Virus record (IMG/VR): IMGVR_UViG_2671180828_000012
Coordinates: 1 to 6,934 of that record
DNA: 6,934 nucleotides
Direction: 5' to 3' (one strand)
Source: a virus
Lineage: Duplodnaviria > Heunggongvirae > Uroviricota > Caudoviricetes
Shown here: one piece after another, positions 1 to 6,331 of the stretch
How the letters are laid out: the number at the start of each line of letters is the position of its first letter
How positions within the stretch are numbered: the first letter of the stretch is position 1
Made by a program: the position numbers and the translations under genes
The notes under the pieces: generated by a model
What the model was told of the DNA's origin: nothing
Databases searched by the model: none
The model's input: only the letters and a program-made list of their open reading frames with translations

Positions 1-20
1 ATCAGACAGGCAGGATTATT

Positions 21-3000
21 TCAGCGCATATCATAGAGGAGGTCATGGTGGATAAGGGAAAAGAGATTCTTGCAGTACGAAATGCAGCCAGCAACGAATA
101 TGGCGGGATAAACTGTGAGGTGCAGTTTGAAGACGCGGTGAATGAAAAAGGGGAACAGGTATGGCTGCCGTATACTGCAACGGAACACATCGTTCATGAA
201 CAACTGATTCCCCTGCGCCACAAATAACGGCGTGGTGTTGCCGTCCTCCGGGTTAATCATCGCAATACGGTCAGCCAGCAGCAGTATGTTGCTCAGGGGC
301 TGGCCATCAGTATCCTCAATCCCCGCTCCAATACCGGCAACATAGGGTATGCCATTTTTTGTTTTCTGTACCTTCAGCATGTAAAGTGCAGCAAGGTCAT
401 CATTTGTGTCCTTCTGCACGCGCTGTATCTGCTGTATGGTGGCGCTCTGGTCCTCCAGCGTTTTACTGACCGTCTGTGTGATTTCATTGCGGGTTTCGGT
501 GATGGTGGTCTTCATCTCCGCCATCTCATCCGCAAGCTGGCTGTTGTCTATCAGCTCCCACAGCCCCTGAGCCAGATGCAGTTTTCCTATTTTTTCCCGA
601 AACAGCCCCAGATACCCTTCTGCATCATTGCTGGCCCGTCCACTGGCTTCAACAAAAGCAGATTTCCCCACCAGGTTAACGCTGCGTACATAAAACCAGA
701 AATCCTTCCCGGGCTTAATGTGCGGGCCGGAGACAGTCCACTGACTGCCAGTCCCCAGATAACGGGCAGATTTTTCCACCTGTGCCGTGTTCGTGATGCG
801 TTTTTCTGAGAACCAGAATTCAAACTGTACCGTCGGGTCATACACCGCAAGACGCGGGACCGCTGTTATCTGAAAATACCCCGGCGTCAGTTCAATGGTG
901 GCGGGTTTTGCTGGCGCGTTAATCCGGAAGGTGGTGGTGGCCGGTTCGCCCTGCTGGCCATAACTGTTAATTGCCCTGACTGTCAGGGTGTATTCCCCGA
1001 GCGGCAGACCACTGAAACGATGCTCTGTATCCGCAGTGATAGCGGTGGTCACCAGACGGCTGTCTTCTCCGCTTCCGCTGGTCAGTCGCAGACTGAAGCG
1101 CACCCCCTTCACCACCCGCGGCGTGTCCCATTTCGCCTGTGCCAGATACTGGCCGTCAGCTGCGCTCACCTCCACCGTCAGGTGCTGCACTGCCGGTGGG
1201 ATGACGCTGTTCAGGGAGCCTGACTGCGGCTCAAAGCGGGCACCGTTATCCACGATGGCTTCTTTTTCCGGTACGTGCTGCACTGCCGTGATGGCAAAGG
1301 TGCCGTCCGTGTTTTCCCGGATGGAGACACAGCGGAACAGGCGACGACGCAGTGACGGCAGGGAGAGTCCCCATACACCGTATGTCTCCACACCATCAGG
1401 CAGGGTGCTGACCTGTATCCGGTCCGGCGCGGGGTGTGCAGTGATGGCCACGCTCACCGGCTTACCGCTGCCGTTAATCAGGTTCACCGTGGCGGCACCG
1501 GTCTCCGGCAGGGTCACCTCACGGTCCAGTGTCAGGGTGCGGCTGGCGGCATCGATGGACAGGACACGTCCGCCGGTCATGGTCCCGGCATAGTCGTTAT
1601 CACAGATTTCAATAATGTCACCGGGTGTGTGACGCAGCCCCTGTGACCCGAGCGTGAAATCCACCGTCTGCGTTTCCAGCAGTCCGGTCTTTATCACCCA
1701 CAGCCCGGCACGGTGGGCCTGACCGCGACTGGTGCAGCCGAACGCATCCATCTTCAGCAGGTTGCGCCCGTAGCGCAGTATGGCTTCCGGGTCTTCCACC
1801 AGTTCCGTGGAGGTCTGCCAGCCGTTCTGCGGGTCGGTGTAATTCACCTCCACCGCCGTGTGCCGGTCCTTCAGGGCACTGAAGCTGTAGCGAAACCCCA
1901 CGCCGTTATCATCCACCACCACATCGCAGTTGGTGTACGGCCACACCACATCCGACAGGCGGTCCTGAACAAACGTCAGCATCTGGCCGTTCCATACCGG
2001 CATACAGCGCATCGCCGAGCAGAAATCACTGAGAACATCCCACGCCTTACGCTGTTGTGCCAGGTACGCATTGAAGGTCATCCGCGGCTCGGTGCCCCCG
2101 AAGCCATCCGGCACCATCTGGTCGCAGTACTGCCCGATGGCATACAGCGCCCACTTGTCCACATCCGCCGCCCCCAGACGTTTTCCCATGCCGTAGCGCG
2201 GGTGAGTCAGCATGTCCCACAGACACCAGGCCGGATTGTTGCTGTATGCCGGTTTCAGACTGCCGTCCCAGATACCACTGTACGTGCGTTTTTCCGGGTC
2301 ATAGTTTGACGGCACCTGGATGATGCGACCGCGGATATGGTAGTTCACCGTCATCTGCTGACCACCAAACTGCTCCGCATCCACCTGCAGCCCCACAATG
2401 GCCGTGTTCGGGTAGCACTGTTTCACATCGATAATTTCAGTGTACGATGACCAGAGCGTTCTGTTCTGCAACTGGTCCGTGGTGCTGTCCGCCGTCTCCC
2501 TGACCATCCGGATGTTAAAGGGCCGGGGCGGCAGATTATCCAGAATCACCGAGGCCAGGAACTGTGAGGTGGTCTTGCCGTTAATGGTGACGTCCTTTTC
2601 CGTCACCCAGCGACCATTACGCTGTAACTGAATCAGAATCCGGACAGAGGAAGGATTACGGTCGCCCTTTGACGTGGTCTCCACCAGTGACTGCACCCCG
2701 AAGGTCACCCGCAGGCGGTCAATGTTCGCGGACGTAATGGTGCGCGTCACCGGTTTTGCCTTCGTCACTTCCACGCCCAGTCCGGTTTCAGCTCCGGAGG
2801 ACTCAAAGCCTTCAGGTGGTGTCTGCTCCTGCTCCCCGGCGCGCCAGACCGCCGTCACACCGTGTATCACGGGATTACCGTCCGTGCCCGTCAGCGGGGT
2901 TTTGTTCACCAGAATACTCTGCAGGCCTTTCACCGGGCCTTCTATCGGTCCCTCACCAATCGCATCAATCACACTCATCATCTGCGTGGATTTGAGATTA

Positions 3001-3047
3001 TCCTTCGCCTCACGAGGCGTGTGTGCCTTACCGCCACCTTTTCCCAT
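21..3047 (-). CDS. J: Lambda J-like tail tip / host specificity protein, C-terminally truncated (1008 aa versus ~1130 aa in lambda)
   Basis: Translation starts MGKGGGKAHTPREAKDNLKSTQ and is collinear with lambda gpJ as I recall it for ~955 residues, through FVAQGNQLFMNDVF. The last 53 residues (RCSIRQPYLFPFF...) are unrelated and end at TGA 21-23. ATG at 3047-3045 with AGGGGAAGG upstream. Confidence 0.9.
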   Translation of the reverse strand: MGKGGGKAHTPREAKDNLKSTQMMSVIDAIGEGPIEGPVKGLQSILVNKTPLTGTDGNPVIHGVTAVWRAGEQEQTPPEGFESSGAETGLGVEVTKAKPVTRTITSANIDRLRVTFGVQSLVETTSKGDRNPSSVRILIQLQRNGRWVTEKDVTINGKTTSQFLASVILDNLPPRPFNIRMVRETADSTTDQLQNRTLWSSYTEIIDVKQCYPNTAIVGLQVDAEQFGGQQMTVNYHIRGRIIQVPSNYDPEKRTYSGIWDGSLKPAYSNNPAWCLWDMLTHPRYGMGKRLGAADVDKWALYAIGQYCDQMVPDGFGGTEPRMTFNAYLAQQRKAWDVLSDFCSAMRCMPVWNGQMLTFVQDRLSDVVWPYTNCDVVVDDNGVGFRYSFSALKDRHTAVEVNYTDPQNGWQTSTELVEDPEAILRYGRNLLKMDAFGCTSRGQAHRAGLWVIKTGLLETQTVDFTLGSQGLRHTPGDIIEICDNDYAGTMTGGRVLSIDAASRTLTLDREVTLPETGAATVNLINGSGKPVSVAITAHPAPDRIQVSTLPDGVETYGVWGLSLPSLRRRLFRCVSIRENTDGTFAITAVQHVPEKEAIVDNGARFEPQSGSLNSVIPPAVQHLTVEVSAADGQYLAQAKWDTPRVVKGVRFSLRLTSGSGEDSRLVTTAITADTEHRFSGLPLGEYTLTVRAINSYGQQGEPATTTFRINAPAKPATIELTPGYFQITAVPRLAVYDPTVQFEFWFSEKRITNTAQVEKSARYLGTGSQWTVSGPHIKPGKDFWFYVRSVNLVGKSAFVEASGRASNDAEGYLGLFREKIGKLHLAQGLWELIDNSQLADEMAEMKTTITETRNEITQTVSKTLEDQSATIQQIQRVQKDTNDDLAALYMLKVQKTKNGIPYVAGIGAGIEDTDGQPLSNILLLADRIAMINPEDGNTTPLFVAQGNQLFMNDVFRCSIRQPYLFPFFIHRVFKLHLTVYPAIFVAGCISYCKNLFSLIHHDLLYDMR
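45..227 (+). CDS. Hypothetical protein, probable 5' fragment of a gene truncated at the prophage deletion junction (60 aa; last ~14 codons lie in antisense J-homologous DNA)
   Basis: ATG at 45 (or GTG at 48) directly preceded by AGAGGAGG (35-42), a strong Shine-Dalgarno. The ORF is convergent with J and runs ~45 nt past the point where J homology begins (~183), so the C-terminus is probably junk from fusion. No family recognised. Confidence 0.35.
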   Translation: MVDKGKEILAVRNAASNEYGGINCEVQFEDAVNEKGEQVWLPYTATEHIVHEQLIPLRHK

Positions 3048-3150
3048 ACAGCCTTCCCCTGAATAAATTAACCGCCACTTGCCATTCCGTACAGAAGTCG
3101 GATATCCTTCGCCCGAAAAGCATGAAACACATTTCTGCCATGCTAAAGAG

Positions 3151-3186
3151 AAACCCCGGTATCAGCAGATACCGGGGTTTTCTTTC
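3151..3186. terminator. Perfect 13-bp inverted repeat with 4-nt loop, flanked by T-rich sequence on both strands (putative bidirectional intrinsic terminator)
   Basis: aaaccccggtatc (3151-3163), loop agca, gataccggggttt (3168-3180) is a perfect 13-bp stem. It is followed by tctttc on the plus strand and by ctcttta on the minus strand. It lies ~100 nt upstream of the J start codon. Confidence 0.5.
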
Positions 3187-3252
3187 ATGCCCACCGATAA
3201 TCCTGTTGGTTAAAACCGGTAATGGCATAAAAATTCTGAATATCTTCACATT

Positions 3253-3280
3253 TTCACAAACTGACCGTGGCGCGTATAAT
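3253..3280 (+). promoter_or_regulatory. Sigma70-like promoter: -35 TTCACA (3253-3258), 16-bp spacer, -10 TATAAT (3275-3280), with an A/T-rich upstream tract
   Basis: Consensus -10 hexamer TATAAT and a 5/6 match to TTGACA at 16-bp spacing. The A/T-rich stretch 3219-3245 is UP-element-like. Predicted start near G3287. Confidence 0.4.
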
Positions 3281-3286
3281 TTCTCT

Positions 3287-3385
3287 GCGTTAATTTTTTT
3301 GTCGTGATATAAGAATAATTCCTTACACTTAATCTTCGTAACTCTCCCGCAGTTCCTGTCCGCGATCACTGCGGGATTTTTTTAT
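3287..3385 (+). ncRNA. Candidate ~100-nt small RNA (moron-like), antisense to the late tail operon in the I-J intergenic insert
   Basis: Bounded by the promoter at 3253-3280 and the intrinsic terminator at 3345-3392. No ATG-initiated ORF lies between them. The body is AU-rich with C/U-rich tracts (UUCCUUACACUU, CUCUCCC) and ends in a GC stem plus U-tract, as in Hfq-type sRNAs. Ends are predicted, not measured. Confidence 0.3.
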
Positions 3386-3392
3386 TCTTTTT
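3345..3392 (+). terminator. Rho-independent terminator: 9-bp GC-rich stem, 14-nt loop, U-tract
   Basis: tcccgcagt (3345-3353) pairs perfectly with actgcggga (3368-3376), followed by tttttttattcttttt. It is only terminator-like in the plus orientation; the minus-strand flank is not U-rich. Confidence 0.55.
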
Positions 3393-3609
3393 ACCCCTGC
3401 CGCCCGATAACCACGACCTTTCCGCCCCCGCCTTCATCACGGGTGCTGATGTCCTGGGATATACGGCGGGAGCCAACCAGCATTTCACCGGAGATATTCA
3501 CGCAGGGGAAATATCTTTCCCCCTCCGGCGTGCTTACCACGAAGCCGCACGACTCCGCAGGCGCACACCGCCGGGCATGCGCCAGAATCGCTGATTCAGT
3601 CTGTGTCAT
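3391..3609 (-). pseudogene. In-frame fusion remnant of tail assembly genes K (N-terminal ~42 aa) and I (C-terminal ~30 aa)
   Basis: ORF from ATG 3609 encodes MTQTESAILAHARRCAPAESCGFVVSTPEGERYFPCVNISGE, matching the lambda gpK N-terminus as recalled, then MLVGSRRISQDISTRDEGGGGKVVVIGRQG, which resembles the lambda gpI C-terminus (...GEMRVGSRVVSQEISTADEGDGGQVVVIGR). Stop TAA at 3393-3391. The K catalytic region and most of I are missing. Confidence 0.7.
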
Positions 3610-4647: not shown

Positions 4648-5840
4648 CCACCGCTCCCTGATAACATACCGCCATCACGCAACTGCAGCCGGAGTTCATC
4701 CTGTGCCCCCTTGCGGGCCATCTCATACACCGCTTTCATCAGCTGCGGCCCTGCCCGCCCGTTGGGGCCGTCGTTCTGAATCACCACGTGATTGTTCTGA
4801 TTAAAATTAATGCCTTCCGCCCGCCGCATCTGCGCCGGACTTCCGGCACCGCCGACATAACCACCTTCCGCATAGCCCCGCATCAGGCGGTACAGATTGC
4901 CGACACCAATCCGGCTGGTCGCCTCCTTCGTGAAGACAAACTCCCCGCGATGAACAATCCCCGCAGGTTCATATTTACCCCCCGTCCCCGTAAATCCCCC
5001 GGTCGCGAAATGGAAGTTCGCCGCCGCAGCCTGAATGGCCGTCCCCGTGGAGGCAGACGCACCACCACCGAAAGCACCGCCAATGGCGCTGCCGATACTC
5101 CCGACTATCCCCACCATCGCCTGCTTCAGAAAAATCTCTGTCAGCATGGACAGCACAGAACGGGTGAAACCACGCCAGTTCTGTTCGCTGCCGGTCAGCA
5201 TCGCTGCCATATTCTGTGCAATACCGTCAAAGGTCTGCGTGGCCGCGTTTTTAACCTGCGAAAAACTGTCCGTCGCACTTTCCGCCCACTCGCCCCAGCC
5301 GGACTTCATCCCGGCCATCCAGCTTCCACGAAGCTGCTCCTCCGCAGACCAGGTGTTCTTCAGTGCAGATGTGGCCTTCGCCAGCGCAGCCGGATTATCA
5401 CCGTACACCTCACGAAGGCGCTGCTCTTCCGACTCCCGCTGCGCCTGACGGTCGGTGAGTCCGCGGGCTTTTGCGCTGATTGCCGCCTGCTTCGCGCTCT
5501 GCTGCTGTTCAAACCGCGCCGCCTGCTGTGCCAGCTCATTCAGCCGTTTCTGGTGTTCAATCTTGTCGCCCAGCTCAGCCAGCTGGCGTTTGTACTCCAG
5601 CGTTTCTTTCTCATGGGCCAGCAGGGATTTTTCCTGCTCAGATACCATGCGGCATTTAGCGGCATTCATCGTACACTCAACGGTTAGCTCTTCATTCGTG
5701 GCATTCACCTGAAAGGTCCGGGAGTGTAATTGCGTACATTTACCACTGAACGAACCTTCAACAAGAACACGACCACGCTGCAAAATACGGAACGGAATTG
5801 TTCCCTGAAAAGGCTTTACGGTTACCAGTAATTTCTTCAT
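4644..5840 (-). CDS. H: Chimeric tape-measure protein: foreign ~61-aa N-terminal module fused in frame to the C-terminal ~335 aa of a lambda H-like tape measure (398 aa)
   Basis: From SEQEKSLLAHEKETLEYKRQLAELG to the end (...KAVYEMARKGAQDELRLQLRDGGMLSGSGG) it is collinear with the lambda gpH C-terminal third as recalled. The N-terminus MKKLLVTVKPFQGTIPFRILQRGRVLVEGSFSGKCTQLHSRTFQVNATNEELTVECTMNAAKCRM is unrelated. ATG at 5840 has GGAG 7 nt upstream. The listed ORF start at 5858 is a TTG and less likely. Confidence 0.8.
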   Translation of the reverse strand: MKKLLVTVKPFQGTIPFRILQRGRVLVEGSFSGKCTQLHSRTFQVNATNEELTVECTMNAAKCRMVSEQEKSLLAHEKETLEYKRQLAELGDKIEHQKRLNELAQQAARFEQQQSAKQAAISAKARGLTDRQAQRESEEQRLREVYGDNPAALAKATSALKNTWSAEEQLRGSWMAGMKSGWGEWAESATDSFSQVKNAATQTFDGIAQNMAAMLTGSEQNWRGFTRSVLSMLTEIFLKQAMVGIVGSIGSAIGGAFGGGASASTGTAIQAAAANFHFATGGFTGTGGKYEPAGIVHRGEFVFTKEATSRIGVGNLYRLMRGYAEGGYVGGAGSPAQMRRAEGINFNQNNHVVIQNDGPNGRAGPQLMKAVYEMARKGAQDELRLQLRDGGMLSGSGG

Positions 5841-5863
5841 GCATTCTCCGGATAACAAAAATA

Positions 5864-6331
5864 CTAGTTAATACACTGAGTGCGGATATAGTCCTGCGCC
5901 CCTTCCAGTTGCTTCTGCATTGTCATCAACCGCTCTCTGAGGGTGAAATAATCCCGTTCAGCGGTGTCTGCCAGTCGGGGGCCGGTTGCATTATCCACGC
6001 GGGCGGTGCCGGTGGCTTCACGCACGGAACCTGGACAGGTGGCGTTGATACGCAGGCTGCGGCGACCAGCGGCAACGTCAGCGCGCAGAGTTTCATTTTC
6101 AGCTCTCGCATCGGCTAACTCCTTTGTGTATTTTTCATCCAGCGCAACAACATCACGCTGACGCTGCTGCATGTCAGTAATGGTTGTGTTTGCCAGCTCC
6201 AGCTCTCTGGCTTTTTTATCGCGCTGCGCTTTGTAGGTGATGGCGTTATCGCGGTAATGATTCAGCCCCAGACTAAGCACACCACAGGCTACCAGCAGGA
6301 CAATAATCACCACACACAGAACACGGTTCAT
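5864..6331 (-). CDS. Rz: Rz-like i-spanin (inner-membrane spanin subunit, 155 aa)
   Basis: [48 protein letters not shown]...[29 protein letters not shown] is collinear with lambda Rz: N-terminal transmembrane segment then coiled-coil periplasmic domain. ATG at 6331; the longer ORF listed to 6415 is an upstream extension. Confidence 0.9.
5926..6111 (-). CDS. Rz1: Rz1-like o-spanin (outer-membrane lipoprotein), fully embedded in the +1 frame of Rz
   Basis: [61 protein letters not shown] has a signal peptide with lipobox-like AAAC and a proline-rich body, and is collinear with lambda Rz1. Confidence 0.85.

Follow-up and report, generated by a model that had tools for sequence, protein, structure and literature searches.

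A putative two-way intrinsic terminator at the J-proximal boundary of the PasB cassette in lambdoid Escherichia prophages

The perfect 13-bp palindrome that lies between tail genes I and J in the analyzed DNA is probably a two-way intrinsic (Rho-independent) terminator, and would represent the J-proximal boundary of the PasB cassette (a moron) carried by lambdoid Escherichia prophages. The DNA in question is a 6934-nt stretch of viral sequence (referred to below as the window), in which all phage genes are on the minus strand. An earlier sequence-only reading had singled out the palindrome as a potential bidirectional terminator or attenuator. We found that it has the anatomy of a terminator on both strands, and that an unrelated module occupying the same place in other phages carries an analogous hairpin and U-tract; termination itself is what these features suggest. 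The palindrome consists of the following elements.

3151-3180, no strand assigned: perfect 13-bp inverted repeat with the loop AGCA at 3164-3167
3154-3163 paired with 3168-3177: G+C-rich core stem of 10 bp
3178-3186, plus strand: T-tract TTTTCTTTC (7 of 9 T) after the core stem, proposed release site on the plus strand
3145-3153, minus strand: AAAGAGAAA on the plus strand, which reads TTTCTCTTT (7 of 9 T) on the minus strand; proposed release site on the minus (tail-gene sense) strand

In a repeat search, the two arms of the palindrome, AAACCCCGGTATC (3151-3163) and GATACCGGGGTTT (3168-3180), were found to be 13 nt each, 100% complementary and separated by the 4-nt loop AGCA. No other perfect inverted repeat in the 6934-nt window has arms of 9 nt or more and a loop of 3-10 nt. 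Moreover, its pattern, even with up to three mismatches allowed, did not occur in any of 200 dinucleotide-preserving shuffles. The initial description of a perfect 13-bp palindrome is thus fully borne out, both in position and in complementarity. As RNA, the hairpin together with its flanks is predicted to fold with -25.6 kcal/mol on the plus strand and -27.1 kcal/mol on the minus strand (z-scores of about -6.5 and -6.2, respectively), and none of 200 shuffles folded as stably. The G+C-rich core by itself yields -18.5 kcal/mol (plus) and -19.1 kcal/mol (minus). If the A/U extensions of the predicted fold are counted, the stem reaches ~18 bp.

The composition of the palindrome is that of an intrinsic terminator: the G+C-rich stem falls within ~5-14 bp, the loop within 3-8 nt, and a U-rich tract follows directly 3' of the stem on both strands. 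T-rich sequence on both sides had been noted before and is indeed present (7 of 9 T on each strand). The elements are laid out as AAAGAGAAA-stem-TTTTCTTTC, with the T-tract on each side complementing the A-tract on the other side. The palindrome shows the combination looked for in bidirectional terminators, as either strand has the features of a terminator and the U-tract is mirrored by an A-tract. The U-tracts, UUUUCUUUC on the plus strand and UUUCUCUUU on the minus strand, have seven U in nine positions each, and each is broken by C; because of this interruption, the efficiency of termination may be partial. A terminator scan of the sequence did not call the palindrome. The scan probably counted the pairing between the A-tract and the T-tract as part of the stem, which would leave a non-T tail.

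Elements of this kind are thoroughly familiar. Bidirectional intrinsic terminators usually sit between two convergent genes. Those of E. coli and its phages share with the palindrome the 10-bp G+C stem, the tetraloop, U-tracts on both strands and the mirrored A-tract. The palindrome departs from the usual pattern in that no known plus-strand gene is located upstream (this is the antisense side of J), the minus-strand side lies inside an operon rather than at its end, and the U-tracts are broken by C. Transcription can reach it from the tail operon on the minus-strand side, whereas on the plus-strand side there is only J antisense and a weak promoter match (9/12). To put the palindrome into its genomic context, we list the surrounding features.

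21-3047, minus strand: tail tip protein J, ATG at 3047; truncated distally, where a tail-fibre fragment is joined to it (window 1-185)
3048-3226, no strand assigned: type A module (~180 nt), bounded by the J start codon and by the A/T-rich stretch ahead of the PasB promoter
3253-3280, plus strand: PasB promoter TTCACA-16 nt-TATAAT (11/12 consensus), preceded by a conserved stretch at 3229-3253
3287-3383, plus strand: PasB sRNA homologue with the terminator stem 3345-3353/3368-3376, then seven T
3391-3490, minus strand: 3' remnant of tail assembly gene I, stop codon at 3391-3393

The palindrome is part of a 343-nt insert between genes I and J, ~70 nt from the -35 element of the PasB promoter. 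The gene layout proposed earlier was confirmed, as the I remnant, the insert and J follow one another in this order on the minus strand. The palindrome had also been placed directly upstream of J. It is indeed upstream, although not immediately adjacent, as the J ATG is 104 nt away. The J open reading frame includes the Pfam domains Ig_J, FNIII-A_GpJ and Phage-tail_3, and its ATG at 3047 is the one given in the RefSeq annotation of an identical locus.

The prophage itself is heavily eroded. A 1103-bp deletion at 3490/3491 has removed the rest of gene I and most of gene K, fusing K' to 'I. At the other end, J is joined at ~182-185 to a DUF4376 tail-fibre fragment, and elsewhere in the window (5644-5864) a shortened tape-measure gene adjoins an Rz lysis gene. 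Despite this erosion, the I/J spacer is 100% identical to the spacers of intact prophages.

Judging by sequence similarity, the plus strand of the insert codes for a homologue of PasB, a published Hfq-dependent sRNA. PasB was annotated in EPEC as an 83-nt RNA (NC_011601, 1466343..1466261) of prophage PP6, between E2348C_1436 and E2348C_1437 (PMC8550237, table S6). The same study reports it as a Northern-validated sRNA with Hfq-dependent stability that acts in trans (PMC8550237), and a later preprint describes it as embedded in a phage structural-gene operon (bioRxiv 10.64898/2026.05.13.724894). From the promoter onward, the window can be aligned with the EPEC locus, and the homology at the I/J junction includes both the probe site and the terminator. 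The published Northern probe AATCCCGCAGTGATCGCGGAGCT (AATCCCGCAGTGATCGCGGA; PMC8550237, table S6) matches the minus strand of the window at ~3357-3378. The 5' end of the PasB homologue would be at ~3287 if transcription starts 7 nt past the -10 element, or at ~3301 if it corresponds to that of the annotated 83-nt EPEC RNA. In EPEC (positions 1762-1844 of locus L003, from NC_011601; compare 3275-3301 of the window) the annotated 5' end is found 21 nt past TATAAT, compared with the usual ~7 nt. Two explanations offer themselves: processing of a ~97-nt primary transcript into the 83-nt RNA, or an imprecise placing of the 5' end, which was derived from coverage. Ahead of its conserved terminator, the body of PasB varies (the window type versus the EPEC/ASU11 type), and the adjacent hairpin module is nearly invariant.

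The layout of the insert agrees with that of published lambdoid-prophage morons, promoter-gene-terminator cassettes located between late genes (PMC4104026, which cites Juhala et al. 2000). Like them, the insert is self-contained, has its own strong promoter and terminator between adjacent, conserved structural genes, and is mosaic, with modules being exchanged in other phages. It differs from other morons in two respects. Its cargo, an sRNA, is transcribed in the direction opposite to the operon, and the hairpin is positioned behind the promoter rather than after the cargo, which makes it an additional boundary element. Being in the tail region, the insert is distinct from the anti-sRNA morons described by Tree et al., which are located downstream of PR', and for the same reason of position we discarded an assignment to the AgvB/AsxR type of anti-sRNA. 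Another candidate, HnrS (EcOnc10-12), was also rejected, as it resides elsewhere in prophage Sp12.

We then considered how widely the palindrome is distributed. At a threshold of at least 95% identity, 1446 of 5426 complete E. coli genomes were found to contain the 96 nt around the hairpin; carriers have a median of one copy and a maximum of four. When at least 80% of the query had to be covered, 1445 genomes remained for the 96-nt query around the hairpin and likewise 1445 for the 361-nt query, which includes the entire insert; the hairpin and PasB are thus almost never found apart. All of the 72 copies that we retrieved share an identical 30-mer, all are in the I/J spacer, and almost always they adjoin PasB; wherever the contig extends to J, the J start adjoins as well. 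In EHEC Sakai, the hairpin is located at 2217494-2217523 of NC_002695.2 (prophage Sp12), where it falls between ECs_2235 and ECs_2236. Among GTDB species representatives, the module was detected only in E. albertii, and the other 57 matches to the 10-bp core turned out to be unrelated hairpins with different loops and flanks. One IMG/VR locus (L109) has kept the hairpin module and lacks PasB, its sequence diverging altogether within the -35 region of PasB, ~64 nt right of the hairpin; it looks like a rearrangement or a chimeric contig.

These data bear on the suggestion that the palindrome is simply a copy of a generic dispersed repeat of the REP/BIME kind. There is a superficial likeness, since REP/BIME elements are also G+C-rich intergenic palindromes. 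In addition, the outer motif AAACCCCGG...CCGGGGTTT recurs in unrelated viral contigs, and the 10-bp core in unrelated bacteria. However, these recurrences differ in inner stem, loop or flanks and thus represent independent hairpins. REP elements are present in many copies per genome in unrelated intergenic regions, whereas the 96-nt element occurs in E. coli carriers typically once and at most four times, and the inspected copies are all at the prophage I/J junction, that is, in a single context. The possibility of a generic repetitive palindromic element, raised from the sequence alone, is refuted by this distribution, and we assign to it practically no probability. The outer motif deserves a separate comment. 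In the form AAACCCCGG(N12)CCGGGGTTT, dozens of unrelated viral contigs (IMG/VR loci L007-L125) carry it around inner stems that differ. Rather than defining a family, the motif appears to be a solution that has recurred for making two-way hairpins of the terminator type. Matches to a degenerate pattern of the type A hairpin were mostly unrelated hairpins as well.

Comparison of PasB loci revealed that the region between J and the PasB promoter exists in two unrelated forms. The type A module, carried by the window, EHEC Sakai Sp12, PPompW phages and ASU11, is nearly invariant among loci. Elsewhere (EPEC E2348/69, Stx2c phages and PhiR5_1) it is swapped wholesale for an unrelated module of ~75 nt, type B. 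In the sample of 134 PasB loci, 74 were of type A and 58 of type B, one had lost the hairpin and one had an IS element beside it; type A is over-represented in these counts, as the hairpin served as the seed of one of the two scans. The type B module also has a hairpin, ACAGGCAYCC-loop-GGRTGCCTGT, the end of which is 19 nt from the conserved stretch upstream of the promoter. This hairpin is preceded on the plus strand by CAAAAACA and hence followed on the minus strand by UUGUUUUUG, and it has no T-tract on the plus strand. The EPEC E2348/69 PasB locus has the same I/J position, promoter and terminator, and the Northern probe defined there matches the window. Yet this locus is of type B, and so the 13-bp palindrome is absent from the very strain in which PasB was defined. 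In NC_011601, its type B element lies between 1466343 (PasB 5' end) and 1466496 (J start).

Substitutions within the type B stem provide a thin indication of the strand on which it matters. Among ten distinct sequences of the stem there is one co-varying pair (U-A in five, C-G in three). One-sided changes preserve a G·U pair on the minus strand and produce a mismatch on the plus strand in 8 of 8 cells. Overall, 99% of the cells are paired on the minus strand compared with 92% on the plus strand, a bias that reflects about three independent substitutions against one in the opposite direction and is not significant in a shuffle control (47 of 500). Its direction agrees with the orientation of the U-tract. 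For type A there is no covariation to score, given that the 72 retrieved copies share the same 30-mer, and the single arm variant (L173) keeps the pairing on the plus strand and loses it on the minus strand. Because type B replaces the sequence while keeping both the shape and the orientation, we favor an RNA-level role on the tail-gene strand. The presence of two unrelated modules with the same kind of hairpin in the same place suggests, at the level of sequence comparison, functional replacement. The passages of the PasB literature that we consulted (PMC8550237; bioRxiv 10.64898/2026.05.13.724894) do not describe this two-module arrangement, nor do they describe the region between the PasB promoter and J.

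The same comparison is informative about whether the palindrome might act as DNA, either as a site for a dimeric protein, as had been proposed from its symmetry, or as a recombination or deletion hotspot at a mosaic boundary. A perfect 13-bp palindrome that is invariant across carriers would fit such a role, as would the fact that rearrangements end at or beside it. However, the invariance extends over the whole ~180-nt module and is not specific to the palindrome. In addition, the module boundaries coincide with the J ATG and ~3226 rather than with the hairpin. Most importantly, the hairpin that type B has at this place is unrelated in sequence, and its stem shows a compensatory change as well as G·U pairs, as expected for RNA structure. 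The alternative module keeping shape and not sequence makes a dimeric protein-binding site a disfavored explanation, and we consider action at the DNA level very unlikely. An RNA terminator is preferred over a sequence-specific DNA site because two unrelated sequences give a hairpin with a minus-strand U-tract at the same place.

Individual rearrangements were recorded at several loci. In NZRM4165 (L004, locus ~1528-1541), gene I has suffered a deletion with one endpoint at the base of the left arm. Another locus (L019) has an IS insertion 18 nt right of the palindrome. In the IMG/VR locus L156, the hairpin has been lost through a precise 46-nt deletion between TTTCT direct repeats. As this natural locus lacks the hairpin, the latter is dispensable, at least in the prophage.

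Taking the palindrome as a two-way terminator, its operation on the two strands may be pictured as follows. On the minus strand, a polymerase without the Q modification would form the stem CCCCGGUAUC/GAUACCGGGG and be released in UUUCUCUUU. The transcription stopped in this way could derive from leaky read-through of the upstream tail genes or from divergent initiation near the strong PasB promoter. In the lysogen, stray sense transcription would thus be halted ahead of J, and during late transcription the Q-antiterminated polymerase would read through the hairpin. The passage of Q-modified polymerase through terminators is well established for lambda late transcription. On the plus strand, the stem followed by UUUUCUUUC would stop J-antisense transcription before it reaches the PasB promoter. 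Regarding the possible source of divergent transcription, a consensus scan of 2900-3600 returned no minus-strand promoter, not even at 9/12, and candidates divergent from PasB that were picked by eye matched only 7-8 of 12 positions and were rejected.

A related case for the proposed minus-strand function is tR' with the 6S/StxS RNA of lambda and Stx phages (PMC7547250), an intrinsic terminator of the late region at which unmodified polymerase stops in lysogens, whereas Q-modified polymerase passes. We propose that the palindrome may behave likewise. The two differ in that tR' directly follows the constitutive promoter PR' and yields an abundant short RNA, whereas the palindrome has no evident minus-strand promoter upstream. 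A full-text search with the hairpin sequence did not match any paper in the library searched. The available EPEC RNA-seq tables list low counts for I and J in lysogens, too low to inform on termination.

A hairpin on the sense strand of an mRNA could also serve the stability or processing of that mRNA. In the case of the late tail transcript, it might be a barrier to 3' exonucleases protecting the upstream part, or a protective 5' stem for J after cleavage of a duplex with PasB. Throughout its length, the PasB gene is antisense to the late transcript in the I-J spacer, and a ~83-bp RNA duplex could form just upstream of the hairpin. The length of the stem (~18 bp with the A/U extensions) and the retention of a hairpin on the tail-gene strand in both module types would be in line with this explanation as well. 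On the other hand, a stability element has no need for a U-tract, yet both modules have one on the minus strand. Furthermore, our data contain no sign of processing, and PasB is reported to be a trans-acting, Hfq-dependent RNA (PMC8550237). We therefore regard a role in mRNA stability or processing as unlikely. Similarly unlikely in our estimation is a more elaborate scheme, in which the whole I-J insert is a two-part switch rather than a passive moron: the sense-strand terminator, which either of the two unrelated modules can provide, would put the host-range protein J under strict Q dependence, PasB would pair with the late mRNA, and the hairpin would protect the resulting J/I fragments, the two parts together tuning tail-tip gene dosage.

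The terminator hairpin has a neighbor on the minus strand that is relevant to the remaining alternatives.

3186-3228, minus strand: second predicted stem-loop (about -18.6 kcal/mol), abutting the terminator hairpin

This stem-loop is a feature of the type A module only. In the predicted fold, its 3' arm can pair with the 5' arm of the terminator (about -11 kcal/mol). Consequently, the hairpin might be a regulated attenuator that sets transcription into J through competition with the 3186-3228 stem-loop. When the 5' arm of the upstream stem-loop is unavailable, its 3' arm would pair with the terminator 5' arm, which gives the 1:2, 2:3 and 3:4 geometry of attenuators. Nevertheless, the alternative pairing is far weaker than the terminator itself (-11 versus -19 kcal/mol). 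The only AUG-initiated open reading frame across the region has neither a recognizable ribosome-binding site nor a family match, and no riboswitch or leader of Rfam matches. Also, the upstream hairpin is missing from type B, and one natural variant breaks a pair of the 3186-3228 stem without compensation. Hence, of the attenuator proposed initially, the alternative pairing stands, whereas a leader peptide with a ribosome-binding site, an Rfam match or a type B counterpart did not emerge, and regulated attenuation seems highly improbable. In ASU11 (L002, 1489-1689, corresponding to 3028-3228 of the window on the minus strand), the annotation includes a 66-aa 'hypothetical protein' whose frame passes through the hairpin into the J start. 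This gene call is probably spurious, since no family matches it and type B lacks it.

Two adjoining stem-loops with an A-rich linker on the minus strand resemble the 3' domain of an sRNA. It may be argued that a distinct small RNA encoded in type A has its 3' end at the hairpin, namely either a plus-strand RNA of ~70 nt initiated from 3079-3108 or a minus-strand RNA of ~90 nt comprising the 3186-3228 stem-loop and the terminator. A second small transcript had been suggested from the sequence alone, and the promoter-like TTGCCA-18 nt-TATCCT at 3079-3108 on the plus strand (9/12) goes some way in its favor, as does the near invariance of the module over hundreds of prophages, which exceeds that of the PasB body. 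However, the plus-strand promoter match is weak, nothing stronger was found in its support, and on the minus strand there is no promoter even at 9/12. Rfam at gathering thresholds gave no matches for the whole window. In permissive mode, the matches for the region 3000-3450 all stayed below threshold and concerned unrelated sRNAs; they reflect the generic shape of a terminator and the resemblance of the two hairpins to an sRNA 3' domain. In the Hfq-CRAC tables for EHEC consulted here (supplements to Tree et al. 2014), no Hfq-bound RNA is entered at the Sp12 site (Sakai 22174xx-22177xx). Finally, the type B module leaves no room for such an RNA, and the U-tails of the type A hairpin are interrupted. 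A separate small RNA is therefore a rather unlikely explanation, and the two-way terminator remains the reading that we prefer.

These findings leave current views of phage gene regulation unchanged. They have some value for annotation, as the I/J spacer is present in about one quarter of complete E. coli genomes, where it is either unannotated or carries the dubious 66-aa open reading frame. In the window, this spacer is predicted to consist of a PasB homologue and a boundary terminator. If termination on the tail-gene strand does take place, it would help explain how a strong sRNA promoter active in lysogens can be accommodated in a late operon without driving J. The two unrelated modules, each of which supplies such a hairpin at this site, would offer a small and clean case of functional replacement in phage mosaicism.
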